The position numbers were made by a program, and so were the translations under genes. A DNA stretch of 46,557 bases from Bacilli bacterium. Its GTDB lineage: Bacteria > Bacillota_I > Bacilli_A > RF39 > UBA660. Shown one piece after another: positions 20,344 to 24,605 of the stretch (the first letter of the stretch is position 1; each line of letters begins with the position of its first letter). Below the pieces are notes generated by a model. The model searched no databases, was not told where the DNA came from, and was given only the letters and a program-made list of their open reading frames with translations. The DNA lies in NCBI GenBank assembly GCA_017476885.1, contig JAFUYX010000039.1:1-46557 (forward strand), read 5' to 3'.

Positions 20344-20591
20344 TTTCATGGTCTTATTATCCCTCTATCGATTTGCATGGAGAGTTTGCTGTTACAGCTT
20401 ATACTGTAGTGCATGATTTTATTACGGATCAAATAAAGTTAAAAAATAAGTATGTTTTGATTATTCATGGAAAGGGTAGTGGAAAATTAAAAGAGGAAGT
20501 GCATCATATTTTATCTCAGGATAAACGAGTGGTTCAGTACCAATTAGACGGATCTAATCTTGGGCAAACCATAGTTGAATTAAGAGTCTAA
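20340..20591 (+). CDS. Smr-domain protein
   Basis: IDLHG ... LIIHGKGSGKLKEEV ... GSNLGQTIVEL matches the Smr nuclease domain. ATGA overlap with the upstream gene. Confidence 0.75.
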   Translation: MISWSYYPSIDLHGEFAVTAYTVVHDFITDQIKLKNKYVLIIHGKGSGKLKEEVHHILSQDKRVVQYQLDGSNLGQTIVELRV

Positions 20592-20612
20592 AGTTCATTT
20601 TTCTTCCAGCAT

Positions 20613-20716
20613 TTGACTTTTTTTGTAAATTGTAGTATACTTTATGTACACAAGGGGATAGAAAAAGTCAATGCAATATACACAAATTTGACATTTTTGA
20701 TATTTTGTGATATAAT
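20613..20716 (+). promoter_or_regulatory. Two tandem near-consensus sigma-A promoters
   Basis: P1 is TTGACT-17-TATACT (20613-20641). P2 is TTGACA-17-TATAAT with a TGn extension (20688-20716). Confidence 0.6.
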
Positions 20717-20752
20717 GTAATTACGAGATGAGTAATAGAGGGGGTTTTATAT

Positions 20753-21175
20753 ATGAAAAATTTCGTTTTAGATTATGTGAATGAGAATGAATTTAGAAAG
20801 TTGGAAAGATCTCTTAAGAAATATAATATGAGAGCGTTTAAGAAGTTAAATTTCGATTATTATCCTGAAATGAGAGATGGTAAATTTCCTGGTGAGATGA
20901 TTAGTAAAAACAAAGAAGCTGGGACTGAAACTTATGAACTTAAATTACCAAGTGATCCAATGTTTGCTCAAGTTCATGGAGAGGTTAAGTTAATTTATAC
21001 AGTTTATAAAAAAGAAGAAACTATTATGTTAAAAGAGATATTACCTAAAGATATCTTACTTGAAGGACATCGAAGTGAACTTGGAACTTATAAAGGAATC
21101 ATGATTAGTAAAGCCAATGCTTCTAAAGATATTTTCAAAATTGACTTGCTAAATATGTTACAAGAAAAGGAATAA
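20753..21175 (+). CDS. Hypothetical protein (140 aa), possible RelE/ParE-like core
   Basis: GAGGGGG RBS. The segment ETYELKLPSDPMFAQVHGEVKLIYTVYKKEETIMLKEILPK resembles the ELR...RIIY...I.L..I strand pattern of RelE/ParE or Gp49 toxins. No partner gene is present. Confidence 0.5.
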   Translation: MKNFVLDYVNENEFRKLERSLKKYNMRAFKKLNFDYYPEMRDGKFPGEMISKNKEAGTETYELKLPSDPMFAQVHGEVKLIYTVYKKEETIMLKEILPKDILLEGHRSELGTYKGIMISKANASKDIFKIDLLNMLQEKE

Positions 21176-21190
21176 TTTTTCCTTTTTTTT
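21165..21190 (+). terminator. Rho-independent terminator
   Basis: Stem AAAAGGAA/TTCCTTTT followed by a T-run. Confidence 0.75.
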
Positions 21191-21227
21191 ATTGTAATTT
21201 TATGCTATAATGTTTTTGTGCTTTTAT

Positions 21228-21303
21228 TACCCAGTAGCCAAGTGGTAAGGCAGTGGGCTCTGACCCCATCATTTCGTAGGTTCGAATCCTACCTGGGTAG
21301 CCA
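21228..21303 (+). tRNA. tRNA-Gln (anticodon CTG)
   Basis: Acceptor stem TACCCAG/CTGGGTA. GCCAAGTGGTAAGGC D-arm. Anticodon loop CTCTGAC. T-arm GTAGG-TTCGAAT-CCTAC. Encoded CCA. Confidence 0.85.
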
Positions 21304-21373
21304 ATTTTTTTAGATATTTTTTTAAAAATGTCTTGTATTTTGATAAATACTATTGTATAATTAAGTAGTTGTT

Positions 21374-21450
21374 GGACCTCTAGCTCAGTTGGTTAGAGCA
21401 CTCGGCTCATAACCGATTGGTCGTAGGTTCGAGTCCTACGAGGTCCACCA
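21374..21450 (+). tRNA. tRNA with CAT anticodon (elongator Met or lysidine-modified Ile2)
   Basis: Acceptor stem GGACCTC/GAGGTCC. Anticodon loop CTCATAA. T-arm GTAGG-TTCGAGT-CCTAC. Encoded CCA. The G1-C72 pair argues against an initiator tRNA. Confidence 0.85.
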
Positions 21451-21459
21451 TTTATTACT

Positions 21460-21544
21460 GCAGGTGTGGCGAAATTGGTAGACGCATTAGACTTAGGATC
21501 TAACGCTTTACGGCATGGGGGTTCAAGTCCCTTCACCTGCACCA
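21460..21544 (+). tRNA. tRNA-Leu (anticodon TAG)
   Basis: Acceptor stem GCAGGTG/CACCTGC. Anticodon loop CTTAGGA. Long variable arm. T-loop GGGGG-TTCAAGT-CCCTT. Encoded CCA. Confidence 0.9.
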
Positions 21545-21583
21545 GTGACGAATCTGTTCGAACTATTCGAACTTTATATATAG

Positions 21584-21608
21584 AGAACTTGAAAAAAGTT
21601 CTTTTTTA
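21584..21608 (+). terminator. tRNA cluster terminator
   Basis: Stem AGAACTT/AAGTTCT followed by TTTTT. It overlaps the -35 element of the next promoter. Confidence 0.65.
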
Positions 21609-21623
21609 TGTTATTATGTATTT

Positions 21624-21736
21624 AGCAAGAAAACTTGCATAAAATAAAAAAGAGGAACATTTAAAGTTGCTAGTGAATGTCGCCTCAATTAATTGAGTTG
21701 GACACTCTATCTAAGCAGATGAGTGTCTATTTTTTT
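21624..21736 (+). ncRNA. Candidate antisense (antitoxin) RNA, module 1
   Basis: TTGAAA-17-TATTAT promoter (21589-21617). Strong terminator GACACTC(T)ATCT-aagc-AGATGAGTGTC plus T-run (21701-21736). The terminator overlaps the stop codon and 3' UTR of the minus-strand peptide gene. Confidence 0.5.
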
Positions 21737-21819
21737 ATGACTAATACCAATAAGGTAAGAAGTGATAAAATGATACAGATGTATCTTAGGAGTTTAATTA
21801 CATAAACTCTTTTTTTCAT
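21727..21819 (-). CDS. 30-aa hydrophobic peptide, candidate type I toxin (module 1)
   Basis: The minus strand reads MKKRVYVIKLLRYICIILSLLTLLVLVIKK*. A GGAGG RBS lies 9 nt upstream. Promoter TTGAGT-17-(TG)nCATAAT at 21885-21913. Terminator hairpin plus T-tract at 21641-21686. Confidence 0.6.
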   Translation of the reverse strand: MKKRVYVIKLLRYICIILSLLTLLVLVIKK

Positions 21820-22059
21820 CGATATCTACCTCCTTCCTTTTTCAAGACTGGAGGACGACACTCACATTAAATGTTCCTAATAAAATTATGCCAAACATTT
21901 ATTCGCGACTCAATAGTTTTACTATATTTTTTCTATTATATATAATAAACCATAGTATTTTGATATTAATGTCAAAATACCTAGGGGGTTAAATATTTTG
22001 TCAAAACAAAATAATGGAAAAATTTTGACAAAACAATGTTTTTATGATAATATTTGTAT

Positions 22060-22178
22060 GTAAGCAGAAAGAACTGCATAAAATAAAAAAGGGAACATTC
22101 AGTTTAGCAATGTTGAATGTCTACCCAAAATTATTTGGACGACATTTAATTCATATGCGAATTAAGTGTCATTTTTTT
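22060..22178 (+). ncRNA. Candidate antisense (antitoxin) RNA, module 2
   Basis: TTGACA-17-TAATAT promoter with a TGn extension (22025-22053). A 12-bp terminator stem GACATTTAATTC/GAATTAAGTGTC plus T7 (22141-22178) covers the peptide stop codon. Confidence 0.5.
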
Positions 22179-22261
22179 ATTACTACTATCATAATGATAA
22201 GGAGAAATAAAATGATAGTAATGTATCGAAGAACTTTGATTATAAAGTTTCTTTTCTTCAT
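22169..22261 (-). CDS. 30-aa hydrophobic peptide, candidate type I toxin (module 2)
   Basis: The minus strand reads MKKRNFIIKVLRYITIILFLLIIMIVVIKK*, a paralog of the module 1 peptide. GAGGAGG RBS. Promoter TTGTTT-17-TATAAT at 22327-22355. Terminator hairpin plus T-tract at 22077-22126. Confidence 0.6.
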   Translation of the reverse strand: MKKRNFIIKVLRYITIILFLLIIMIVVIKK

Positions 22262-22516
22262 CATTATCAAACCTCCTCTCTATAAGAGATTTGGTAGACA
22301 CTCAACAACTGATATTCCCTATGAAAATTATACTATTAAACAATTATATAAACAAGCGAACAAGTAAAAAAATGTAACAATTTTATAAAGTTGTGATATA
22401 CCTATATTAGTTAGTAAGTTATTATTACCTATTAATGTTTGTAAGAAAAGTTATTCGACTTCTTCTTCGTGGGCACCATTAAAGAATCTGGTTGAACTTT
22501 GGTTCAATTTACTAAT

Positions 22517-22549
22517 AAAAATCAATTCTTGAAATGGAATTGATTTTTT
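22517..22549. terminator. Bidirectional hairpin terminator with no obvious gene
   Basis: Stem ATCAATTC/GAATTGAT flanked by an A-run and a T-run. Confidence 0.5.
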
Positions 22550-22860
22550 GTTTTGCAAAAGAAAGGAATGATTTAATGGTAAATATTATTAAACAAAAAA
22601 TTGATATTGAAGAATTCGATTTAGAAAGCAAAAATGATGACTTTTAGAGGTAAAACTTTATTTCATCTTTATTTTTTTGTAATTTTTTTTACTGATTTTA
22701 AACTATAATAAGAAGGTGGAGTCAATGTGGGAATTTGGGATTATTCTATAGCACTCTTAACGCACTTTAGAGTTTTTCTTTTAGACTTTATTCGAATCGT
22801 ATTTGACCCGTTTTTTTTCTTATGTTATACTAAGTTTAATTGAAGATAGGAGGTGTGTGT

Positions 22861-23247
22861 ATGAAAAAAGGTTTCAAATTTTTGGGGGTTTTGGTTCTTG
22901 TTGGTGCTTTGTTTTTCGCTGCTGGATGTGAAAAAAAGGATATGAGTCGTGTTGTTGGAACTTATGAAGGTCAATTTACAAAATTCGTAGGAGATCCTGA
23001 TGAGGCTAAGAATACCGAAGATGCTTTTTCTATTGAATTAAAAGAAGATGGGACTGGTATTCATCATCGTGATGATTTAGATTTAAGTATTACTTGGACT
23101 TTGGATGGAGAAAACTTTACTATGAAAGAGACTTTTTTAAAGATTTCTATAGATTATACAGGAACTTTAAAAGATGGAAAATTAGATATCTTTAATGGAG
23201 ATCCTACTAATGATGTTACTTGCGAGTATGTATATCAAAAAAAATAA
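22861..23247 (+). CDS. Small lipoprotein of unknown function
   Basis: TAGGAGGTG RBS. Signal peptide with lipobox FAAG-C. TTGACC-17-TATACT promoter at 22803-22831. Confidence 0.7.
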   Translation: MKKGFKFLGVLVLVGALFFAAGCEKKDMSRVVGTYEGQFTKFVGDPDEAKNTEDAFSIELKEDGTGIHHRDDLDLSITWTLDGENFTMKETFLKISIDYTGTLKDGKLDIFNGDPTNDVTCEYVYQKK

Positions 23248-23270
23248 AGAACGTTTCTGTTCTTTATTTT

Positions 23271-24605
23271 TTAATAGTTTAATGTTTCCATTGATGGAGG
23301 CATATTTTGTTTGGGTTCTTGATTAATAGTTTCAAATTTGGCTTCTTCCATCTTCTTTTGATTTCTATCTACTTTTCCAATGATAGCATTTTTCAAGTCG
23401 CTTTGTTTTTCACCTAAGTCATCTTCAATATCGATTACTCTTAGTACTTCTTCAAAGCTTGTAAGGCCATTAATAACTTTGATTAATCCATCGTTTAATA
23501 AACTTGTTGCCGTTCCTGTATTATAAATTAACTCACGTATTTGTTCTTTGGGCATATTATTTACGATTGCATCTCTGATTTCTTGATTTAAAACCAGTAC
23601 TTCATGTAAAGGAATACGTCCTGTATATCCCTTATAGCAGTTATTACATCCAACTGGTTTATAGATGTTTTCAATATCCATTCCAAGGGCAGCTTTAAAC
23701 ACTCTTTTTTCATAATCTGTTGTTGGTCTTGCTTCTCTACATTTAGGGCATAATTTTTTACATAATCTTTGAGAGATGATGGCTTCTAGAGCAGAACCTA
23801 GTAAATATCTTTCTACTTCCATATCTACAAGACGTTCTATGGTTGTCAGAGAGTTGTTTGTGTGGATGGTGGATAATACTAAGTGACCTGTAATCGAAGC
23901 ACGTACAGCAATTCTTGCGGTTTCGTTATCACGAATCTCTCCAATCATGATAATGTCTGGGTCTTGACGTAAGATAGAACGTAAGGCTGTGGCAAATGTC
24001 AGACCGATTTCACTCATGGTTTGAACTTGATTGATTCCGGCGATTTTCATTTCGACTGGGTCTTCAACGGTGATAATATTTCTGCTTTCTGTATTTAGGG
24101 TTTCTAGTATGGCATATACCGTGGTTGATTTACCTGATCCGGTAGCTCCTGTGACTAAAATGATTCCATTTGGTTTGCTTATGGCTTTTTGAACTAATTC
24201 ATAATTTCTTTCTGAAAATCCTAGGGAATCTAAACTACTTGTTGTAGCAGAGTAATCTAGCAAACGGATAACGACTTTTTCGCCATATACAATTGGTAGA
24301 GTAGAGACACGGAAATCCAAATCTTTTCCGTCTGCAGTCATTTTAATCGCACCATCTTGAGGGATTCTTGATTCTGTAATATTCATTCCTGAAATAATTT
24401 TTACTCTGGTTACGAGATTCTTTTTTACTGCTTCTGGAACTACAGCATATAAAATTAGTTCTCCATCTACACGAATACGCACGTTTAAAACATCTGGTGT
24501 GGGATCCATATGAATATCGCTGGCTCTTTTTCTTGCTGCGTCTAAAAGCATTTCATTCACGATGTCAACGATTGGTTGGTTTTGATAATCATATTCTGTA
24601 AACAT
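23271..24605 (-). CDS. GspE/PilB-family secretion ATPase (T2SSE)
   Basis: Walker A GATGSGKSTT. Asp and His boxes. Tetracysteine motif CPKC...CNNC. AAGGTGA RBS before MFTEY. A roughly 50-aa hydrophilic C-terminal extension. Confidence 0.85.
   Translation of the reverse strand: MFTEYDYQNQPIVDIVNEMLLDAARKRASDIHMDPTPDVLNVRIRVDGELILYAVVPEAVKKNLVTRVKIISGMNITESRIPQDGAIKMTADGKDLDFRVSTLPIVYGEKVVIRLLDYSATTSSLDSLGFSERNYELVQKAISKPNGIILVTGATGSGKSTTVYAILETLNTESRNIITVEDPVEMKIAGINQVQTMSEIGLTFATALRSILRQDPDIIMIGEIRDNETARIAVRASITGHLVLSTIHTNNSLTTIERLVDMEVERYLLGSALEAIISQRLCKKLCPKCREARPTTDYEKRVFKAALGMDIENIYKPVGCNNCYKGYTGRIPLHEVLVLNQEIRDAIVNNMPKEQIRELIYNTGTATSLLNDGLIKVINGLTSFEEVLRVIDIEDDLGEKQSDLKNAIIGKVDRNQKKMEEAKFETINQEPKQNMPPSMETLNY

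Follow-up and report, generated by a model that had tools for sequence, protein, structure and literature searches.

A candidate family of type I toxin-antitoxin modules with 3'-overlapping antisense RNAs in uncultured low-GC Bacilli

Beside the genes for tRNA-Gln, tRNA-Met and tRNA-Leu, which end at position 21544 of contig JAFUYX010000039.1 (assembly GCA_017476885.1), lie two paralogous units (21584-22355), each with a 30-codon open reading frame (ORF) on the minus strand and a convergent promoter on the plus strand. An earlier note, made from the sequence alone, had read them as tandem modules resembling type I toxin-antitoxin systems. What do these units encode, and to which kind of type I system would they belong? 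We analysed the whole contig of 46,557 bp (the window), which has a GC content of about 30% and comes from a metagenome-assembled genome (MAG) labelled "Bacilli bacterium". Each module is probably a chromosomal type I toxin-antitoxin locus of the Gram-positive kind, in which the antisense RNA overlaps the 3' end of the toxin mRNA. It is well supported that the modules form a new family of this known kind, one that has no match in Pfam, NCBIfam, Rfam, PHROGs, PADLOC or the literature searched. Three features of the class were found: a small peptide with a single predicted helix, an antisense gene that is complementary to the mRNA at the level of sequence, and a predicted sequestration of the Shine-Dalgarno sequence (SD).

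Layout of the modules and coding evidence for the peptide

The two modules share 72% nucleotide identity over 244 nt, and their peptides are identical at 19 of 30 positions; the window holds no third copy. A back-translated scan of one genome per GTDB species gave 34 loci. With tblastn, which the earlier note had proposed, the family came to 48 copies in 40 loci, including these 34 species-representative MAG loci, and 41 copies were analysed in full. Conservation of the ORF, on which the earlier note had staked its reading, held: the length of 30 codons is exact in 40 of the 41 copies, in which the start codon, the SD and the stop codon are likewise kept, and the SD lies 7-10 nt upstream of the start across the 48 copies. 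The third codon position is the most variable, the ratio of nonsynonymous to synonymous polymorphism (pN/pS) is 0.38, and of the two alternative frames on the same strand one is closed in every copy, while 14 of 41 copies have the other open. Judged by these patterns in the sequence, the 30-codon ORF is a real coding gene under purifying selection.

The same patterns bear on the view that the ORF is fortuitous and that the modules are a structured repeat without coding function, composed of the sequence of a tRNA trailer and a bidirectional terminator. Although one clade of copies does start exactly at the 3' ends of tRNA or transfer-messenger RNA (tmRNA) genes and holds several terminator-like hairpins, the conserved ORF length and signals, the variable third codon position, the closed alternative frames and the fact that most copies are not beside any tRNA gene make such a repeat extremely improbable.

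The peptide has a basic N-terminus (MKKR), a hydrophobic core and a Lys-Lys (KK) tail, and with 30 residues it falls below the limit of 60 residues for type I toxins. AlphaFold models it as a single helix over residues 2-29 (pLDDT 91.6), and it presumably damages the membrane. The parts of the two modules are as follows; the ends of the RNAs are putative.

21584..21608, plus strand: hairpin of the tRNA-operon trailer, AGAACTT-GAAAA-AAGTTCT followed by a T-run, read from the sequence
21589..21617, plus strand: predicted antisense (antitoxin) promoter 1, TTGAAA-17-TGtTATTAT, from the promoter scan and at the same position in other genomes
21624..21737, plus strand: predicted antisense RNA 1, about 114 nt, from folding
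21640..21878, minus strand: predicted toxin mRNA 1, about 239 nt, from folding and helix covariation
21701-21727 and 22141-22170, plus strand: terminator stems of modules 1 and 2, each followed by T7, spanning the stop codons at 21727-21729 and 22169-22171
21727..21819, minus strand: toxin ORF 1, MKKRVYVIKLLRYICIILSLLTLLVLVIKK, TAG stop, from the ORF list and comparative coding evidence
21829..21833, minus strand: SD of toxin 1, GGAGG, 9 nt upstream of the ATG, predicted unpaired probability 0.005
21850..21854, minus strand: anti-SD CCUCC in the 5' untranslated region (UTR) of toxin mRNA 1, paired to the SD in the minimum free energy (MFE) fold and at all transcript prefix lengths
21885..21913, minus strand: predicted toxin promoter 1, TTGAGT-17-TGgCATAAT, from the promoter scan
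22025..22053, plus strand: predicted antisense (antitoxin) promoter 2, TTGACA-17-TGaTAATAT, from the promoter scan and at a conserved position
22044..22367, plus strand: spurious 107-aa ORF antisense to module 2
22060..22179, plus strand: predicted antisense RNA 2, about 120 nt, from folding
22078..22320, minus strand: predicted toxin mRNA 2, about 243 nt, from folding and helix covariation
22169..22261, minus strand: toxin ORF 2, MKKRNFIIKVLRYITIILFLLIIMIVVIKK, TGA stop, from the ORF list and comparative coding evidence
22272..22276, minus strand: SD of toxin 2, GGAGG, 10 nt upstream of the ATG, paired to UCUCU in the fold
22327..22355, minus strand: predicted toxin promoter 2, TTGTTT-17-TATAAT, read from the sequence

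Thus the layout that the earlier note had described was found throughout: both peptides with the exact sequences it gave, ribosome-binding sites of the GGAGG type, sigma-A-like promoters on the minus strand, convergent plus-strand promoters (here with an additional TGn), plus-strand terminators that cover the stop codons, and the conserved sequence CTTTTTTATTTTATGCA after the hairpin in both modules. Its dismissal of the 107-aa ORF was also borne out, and we reject this ORF as a gene, since the only two copies, out of 41, in which its frame is open both belong to the species of the window. Toxin ORF 2 has further in-frame starts at 22264 (ATG, 31 aa) and 22270 (TTG, 33 aa). The protein flanking the modules in the window is MBR1679486.1.

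In a simple promoter scan, promoter-like hexamers were no commoner in this region than in shuffled sequence (8 versus 8.5). The promoters are credible because their position is conserved in other genomes, and the case therefore rests on RNA folding and on the comparison between genomes. Of the 41 copies, 37 have the antisense promoter at the same place, with a TTGACA-like -35 box and a TGnTAttAT -10 box separated by 17 nt; in most copies the -10 box of the toxin promoter lies 64-65 nt upstream of the ATG. The -35 box of antisense promoter 1 sits in the loop and the 3' arm of the tRNA trailer hairpin.

Upstream of toxin promoter 1 on the minus strand, about 100 bp (21914-22024) are conserved only in the tRNA-linked clade; this segment is absent from the loci L011 and L015. 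It holds three TTTTGACA/TGTCAAAA motifs, one of them as the inverted repeat TTTTGATATTAATGTCAAAA, and a CCCCCTAGG core, and it may be an operator or an additional promoter.

Exact look-up of the two peptides in the protein collection returned no entry, which means that they have never been called in this exact form by a gene caller. A profile search of a representative library of 1.84 billion proteins matched the peptide in 54 clusters, many of which are erroneous calls that continue past the TGA stop. Public gene calls of the family (P0016-P0022 and others) are often 40-150 aa long and read TGA as Trp (genetic code 4), and one of them runs on into the reverse complement of a tRNA gene. As a result of such read-through the peptide family is hidden or mis-annotated in protein databases. 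Genetic code 4 can be rejected for the host, since TGA terminates 8 of 32 long ORFs, as expected of the standard code.

Folding of the toxin mRNA and the antisense RNA

Folding of the predicted transcripts, which the earlier note had recommended, gave unusually stable structures for both toxin mRNAs: the MFE was -76.9 kcal/mol for mRNA 1 (z = -8.2) and -76.8 kcal/mol for mRNA 2 (z = -7.7), and none of 200 shuffled sequences was as stable. In both folds the first 24-27 nt are paired to the last 35 nt or so preceding the U-tract. The 5' strand 21855-21878 of mRNA 1 pairs with the 3' strand 21653-21683, next to which the U-tract lies, and the corresponding strands of mRNA 2 are 22294-22320 and 22090-22124. 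The 12-nt complementarity noticed earlier in module 1 (AGGAACATTTAA, 21867-21878 versus 21653-21664) is exact and forms part of this longer helix. The helix is conserved across genomes: in 38 of 39 copies, 21 or more of the first 35 nt find their partners within the last 75 nt, and on the alignment 96.5% of its positions are paired, compared with 36-49% when the partner columns were slid (0 of 500 shuffles equalled the observed values). Compensatory changes occur at 10 of the 20 helix pairs, for example UA22/CG11/UG6, AU19/GC16 and GC16/UA16/AU4. A local terminator hairpin (mean -7 kcal/mol) adjoins the U-run in almost all copies and competes with the 5':3' duplex (mean -34 kcal/mol).

Nearly all copies have a paired SD, whose partners usually lie within nt 28-42. 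The predicted probability that the SD is unpaired averages 0.08 for full-length mRNAs and 0.05 for nascent transcripts, and it falls below 0.1 in 30 of 39 full-length copies and in 34 of 39 nascent transcripts. The CCTCC tract suggested as a partner of the SD indeed pairs with it in the fold of module 1; in module 2 this role falls to a UCUCU tract at about 22285-22289, within an anti-SD arm of 22284-22293. This local upstream anti-SD holds the SD at every length of the nascent transcript.

The earlier note had taken the 5'-3' fold-back and the sequestered SD as hallmarks of hok- and AapA-type toxin mRNAs. In mRNAs of this type the fold-back would keep the full-length mRNA inert until exonucleases trim its 3' end and thereby open up the SD; the antisense RNA would be directed against this activated form. 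Both hallmarks are present, and the 5'-3' helix is strong and covarying. However, the antisense gene sits at the 3' end, and its RNA is the complement of the 3' UTR rather than of the 5' UTR or of the region where translation starts; no Hok-, Ldr- or AapA-like match was found in Pfam or Rfam. Moreover, when 45 nt were cut from the 3' end the SD stayed paired (mean unpaired probability 0.07, versus 0.08 at full length). Since the pairing of the SD is local and persists after 3' truncation, the fold-back clamps the ends of the RNA and is not what hides the SD. We therefore reject both the fold-back as the SD-hiding element and a hok-like activation by 3' trimming, and regard membership in the hok/AapA type as very unlikely. 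The resemblance is instead to bsrG/SR4, as set out below.

By eye, each toxin mRNA contains GAGUGUC twice, once in the 5' UTR and once beyond the stop codon, where it lies in the 3' arm of the hairpin, and the partners GACACUC (or GACACUU) and GACAUUC likewise occur twice. The sites in module 1 are 21855-21866, 21721-21727, 21701-21707 and 21673-21683, and module 2 has equivalents. Such duplicated motifs allow mutually exclusive helices, which would suit a stepwise co-transcriptional refolding. Refolding of this kind has been described for hok and aapA1.

The predicted antisense RNAs also fold better than their shuffled counterparts (RNA 1: -30 kcal/mol, z = -3.5; RNA 2: z = -4.5). Their plan is conserved and consists of stem-loop (SL) 1, an A-rich single-stranded linker (AUAAAAUAAAAAAG in RNA 1), SL2, SL3, and the terminator followed by U7. 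RNAalifold on a plain MAFFT alignment gave SL2 only, as indels misaligned SL1, SL3 and SL4, and it was replaced by per-copy folding and a test of strand asymmetry. The antisense strand was more stable than its reverse complement in 30 of 32 copies (-30.0 versus -25.2 kcal/mol), and U-G pairs in the terminators of type-2 copies correspond to C-A mismatches on the toxin strand. SL1 covaries (GCAAG/CUUGC, GCAG/CUGC, AUGAAG/CUUCAU and GUGAAG/CUUCAU), though it lies outside the overlap with the mRNA.

The overlap amounts to about 95-100 nt of perfect complementarity and covers the last 3-4 codons and the whole 3' UTR including the 3' strand of the clamp. The 3' overlap of the two predicted transcripts, postulated earlier, is conserved. 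The U7 of the antisense terminator is the complement of the Lys-Lys-stop sequence of the toxin gene; the KK tail is therefore doubly constrained, by the peptide and by the terminator. Copies residing in the same genome are mutually orthogonal, with about -170 kcal/mol for cognate duplexes and -43 to -96 kcal/mol for non-cognate ones.

Distribution, natural lesions and association with tRNA ends

The host MAGs are from uncultured bacteria of the rumen and of the rabbit, mouse and human gut, and are labelled Bacilli, Erysipelotrichaceae, Tenericutes or Clostridium sp. CAG:594. The number of modules differs between contigs of the window's own species (zero, one or two); in the family, tandem arrays reach three copies. 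A 772-bp segment (22027-22798), consisting of module 2 and about 470 bp, is missing in L001 and L003. In L005, from the same species, the place of the modules is taken by genes for an integrase-like protein and a Schlafen/AlbA_2 ATPase, which indicates that the site just downstream of the tRNA genes is a variable hotspot. At L005:1260-4700, homology to the window ends at about 21590, at the -35 box of the antitoxin promoter; the integrase-like gene is of the rve type, and the other product, a 486-aa SLFN/AlbA_2 + HATPase_c_4 protein, might be encoded by a defence gene.

Diverged copies occupy unrelated intergenic sites, namely next to tatD/metG, mraZ-rsmH-ftsL/penicillin-binding protein, tsaD/gyrB-like, addA-like helicase and TetR regulator genes, and no partner gene was found to be conserved across the copies. 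Neither blastn nor tblastn matched the modules in phage and plasmid collections.

Natural lesions mostly strike expression of the toxin. In module 1 of L002 the -10 box of the toxin promoter, the 5' UTR and the SD are lost, while the antisense gene is kept; the SD is mutated in L021 and L027, and L021 also lacks the stop codon; the ORF is broken in L040 and L044. The clearest loss of an antisense promoter is a 48-bp deletion between CAAGTT repeats in L012, where the SD is mutated as well, and in L030 and L042, in which the antisense promoter is weak or unclear, the SD is weakened too. These lesions fit the logic of a toxin-antitoxin system, as anecdotal evidence. At L036:84-1700 an insertion sequence (IS) element interrupts the loop of the hairpin that directly follows the toxin stop codon. 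Its transposase gene runs on the opposite strand, and the element splits the ORF from the rest of the 3' UTR and the antisense promoter.

Could the peptide be an ordinary, non-toxic small membrane protein, such as an accessory subunit or a regulator, that is tuned by a cis-antisense RNA? It is under purifying selection, its toxicity is a prediction, and copies lie between housekeeping genes (tatD/metG, the dcw cluster, gyrB-like) and have no link to phages or plasmids, all of which would agree with such a role. On the other hand, the modules vary in presence between strains of one species and form tandem multi-copy arrays; they stand in unrelated contexts with no conserved partner gene; the peptide is silenced in three layers (local anti-SD, 5'-3' clamp and antisense RNA); and decay concentrates on the signals for its expression. 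All four points are typical features of type I toxins and would be unusual in a small protein with a housekeeping role. We consequently consider a non-toxic protein unlikely and prefer the assignment to type I toxin-antitoxin loci.

The proximity of the window modules to tRNA genes is a property of one clade only: adjacency to tRNA genes as a rule for the whole family was rejected, as most copies are not beside one. In this clade, the type-1 cassette (window 21545-22015), compared with L012-L014, L021-L024, L027 and L028 around 2300-2860, is 90-97% identical across MAGs of different species. It begins exactly after the CCA end of tRNA-Leu(TAG), tRNA-Leu(CAA), tRNA-Thr(CGT), tRNA-Thr(GGT) or tmRNA, and a 46-nt trailer, GTGACGAATCTGTTCGAACTATTCGAAC..., is invariant in all type-1 cassettes after these differing genes. 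The tRNA and the antisense RNA always have the same direction, and in five loci the gene on the far side is the same one despite the different tRNA. A degenerate counterpart lies to the right of module 2:

22436..22565, plus strand: degenerate tRNA 3' end (..GGGCACCA), trailer and a hairpin with a TTGAAA loop

This copy falls within the 772-bp segment that L001 and L003 lack. At L021:1470-1625, a degenerate tRNA 3' end (..GCACCA), the trailer and a terminator-like hairpin, again with a TTGAAA loop, likewise stand beside a second module. Both copies look like att-type repeats. Within 3 mismatches, no second tRNA-Leu 3' end that could serve as an attR site was found in the window, which has just the degenerate remnant at 22436-22565. 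The placement at tRNA ends could reflect mobility targeted to these ends, edges of decayed integrative elements, or recombination between trailers.

One may speculate that the type-1 cassette of about 470 bp is a self-contained unit that spreads between species by inserting exactly after the CCA ends of tRNA and tmRNA genes and carries the tRNA-3'-end/trailer repeat with it; we hold this to be doubtful. In such a unit, the antitoxin promoter would be placed in the terminator hairpin of the tRNA operon, where read-through from the strong tRNA promoter would top up the antitoxin, and the toxin terminator would be recycled into the 5'-3' clamp after release of the transcript. If this were true, the modules would be persistent remains of tRNA-targeting integrative elements or a new mini-element associated with tRNA ends.

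The strain-variable segment also contains, at 22534-22647 on the plus strand, a small ORF of 37 aa (23 aa if started at an internal ATG with an AAAGGAA ribosome-binding site), which is called as a gene in L002 (5710-5823). A terminator-like hairpin lies beside it at about 22505-22540.

Relation to known type I systems and proposed mode of action

At E <= 10 neither peptide matched any toxin family in Pfam or NCBIfam, including the Fst family of Pfam, and the PHROGs and PADLOC searches gave only noise-level or no matches. In an Rfam cmscan of 20500-23500 at E <= 10, three tRNAs alone reached the gathering score, and none of the type I antitoxin RNA families (RatA, Sok, Sib, IstR, RNAII and others) did; the only related hit, to the BsrG model, was at noise level (13.6 bits versus a gathering threshold of 55, E = 3.9). 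Full-text literature searches found no paper on the peptide motifs and no published type I system for this uncultured low-GC gut and rumen lineage of Bacilli. The novelty of the family, which the earlier note had left to be checked, is in line with these searches. In the phage and plasmid collections, PHROGs and PADLOC, nothing identifies the modules as a phage- or plasmid-borne addiction or defence module.

T1TAdb lists 24 type I families, and the Gram-positive ones place the antisense RNA at the 3' end, overlapping the mRNA (PMC8594479). In the way the system works, the closest known analogue is bsrG/SR4 of Bacillus subtilis, not hok or AapA. In probed bsrG mRNA, nt 1-35 pair with nt 232-262 (helix P1) and the SD lies in a 4-bp stem, while SR4, which has four stem-loops, the last being the terminator, targets the 3' end of the mRNA (PMC3834814). 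SR4 promotes decay initiated by RNase III and tightens the SD stem of bsrG (PMC3834814; PMC6562991). The modules share the convergent genes, the antisense overlap with the 3' end of the mRNA and the end of the ORF, the long helix between the first 35 nt or so of the mRNA and its 3' region, the SD in a short local stem, an antitoxin of four stem-loops that ends in a terminator, and a small hydrophobic single-helix toxin. In architecture (3' overlap, P1-like helix and local SD stem) they thus agree with the TxpA/BsrG family, whereas sequence homology to it was not found.

There are differences as well. BsrG has 38 residues, compared with 30 in the peptides of the modules, which have a basic N-terminus and a KK tail. 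In bsrG the terminator, SL4, follows P1 as a separate element, whereas in the modules the terminator region, which adjoins the U-tract, itself forms the 3' strand of the clamp. Their SD stem, of at least 5 bp, is completely closed in the model. Their antisense RNA measures about 115 nt rather than the 183 nt of SR4, and the locus is chromosomal and without prophage context.

With txpA/RatA, bsrE/SR5 and yonT/SR6 of B. subtilis and sprG/SprF of Staphylococcus aureus, the modules have in common the 3' overlap and perfect complementarity of at least about 100 bp (PMC8594479), and the expected mode of action, mRNA decay initiated by RNase III, is the same (PMC8594479; PMC6562991), whereas the peptide and RNA sequences are unrelated. 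Like hok/Sok and aapA/IsoA, they show a long-distance 5'-3' interaction in the mRNA, a sequestered SD and several possible mutually exclusive helices; in those systems, however, the antisense RNA acts at the 5' end and the mRNA is activated by 3' trimming, whereas here the antisense RNA lies at the 3' end and the sequestration is local. The par system of Enterococcus faecalis (fst/RNAII) is likewise transcribed convergently, restricts translation through a stem-loop at the 5' end and encodes a small helical membrane toxin, but its RNA-RNA interaction uses direct repeats at the 5' end of the mRNA, outside the overlap (PMC8594479).

We propose the following mode of action. The minus strand would yield an mRNA of about 240 nt for the single-helix peptide that is made translationally silent, since the anti-SD, 15-20 nt upstream, would pair with GGAGG as soon as the SD has been transcribed. 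After termination, both arms of the weak terminator hairpin would re-pair with the first 30 nt or so to form the end-to-end clamp, which may stabilize the mRNA by hiding both ends from exonucleases. Given this clamp, the toxin mRNA would be the stable and the antisense RNA the labile partner. From the plus strand, a near-consensus promoter with an extended -10 box would drive an antisense RNA of about 115 nt. By analogy with bsrG/SR4 and txpA/RatA, pairing probably begins at the A-rich linker of the antisense RNA and the free U-tail of the mRNA, or between hairpin loops, and would spread to a duplex of about 100 bp that opens the clamp. RNase III would cut this duplex, exonucleolytic decay of the mRNA would follow, and no toxin would be made while the antisense RNA is present.

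Several points weigh against this interpretation. Most of the covariation in the 5'-3' helix splits two subfamilies, so the independent compensatory events are fewer than the counts of base pairs suggest. The thermodynamic model shows no obvious route that frees the SD; it might be exposed if the stem breathes, or if the A/U-rich loop that separates it from the anti-SD is cut. The A-rich linker, with a mean unpaired probability of 0.60 in the ensemble, is no more than moderately accessible. Transcription and all RNA ends, on both strands, are predicted from promoter and terminator motifs, and toxicity only from the size, helix and charge pattern of the peptide together with the architecture of the locus. 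Finally, neither the peptide nor the RNAs match a curated toxin or antitoxin family in Pfam, NCBIfam or Rfam.

If the peptide is toxic, its 30 residues would place it among the shorter single-helix type I toxins. Gene callers miss or mis-call its ORF, through TGA read-through or in favour of the spurious 107-aa ORF on the opposite strand. The roughly 40 diverged natural copies provide a covariation data set for studying the interplay of 5'-3' clamp, local anti-SD and 3' antisense RNA, and the orthogonal co-resident copies could be used as parts for RNA-based regulators. As type I loci, which we consider the probable assignment, the modules would extend the type I repertoire by one family of toxin peptides and one of antisense RNAs, in a large uncultured lineage of low-GC gut and rumen Bacilli.

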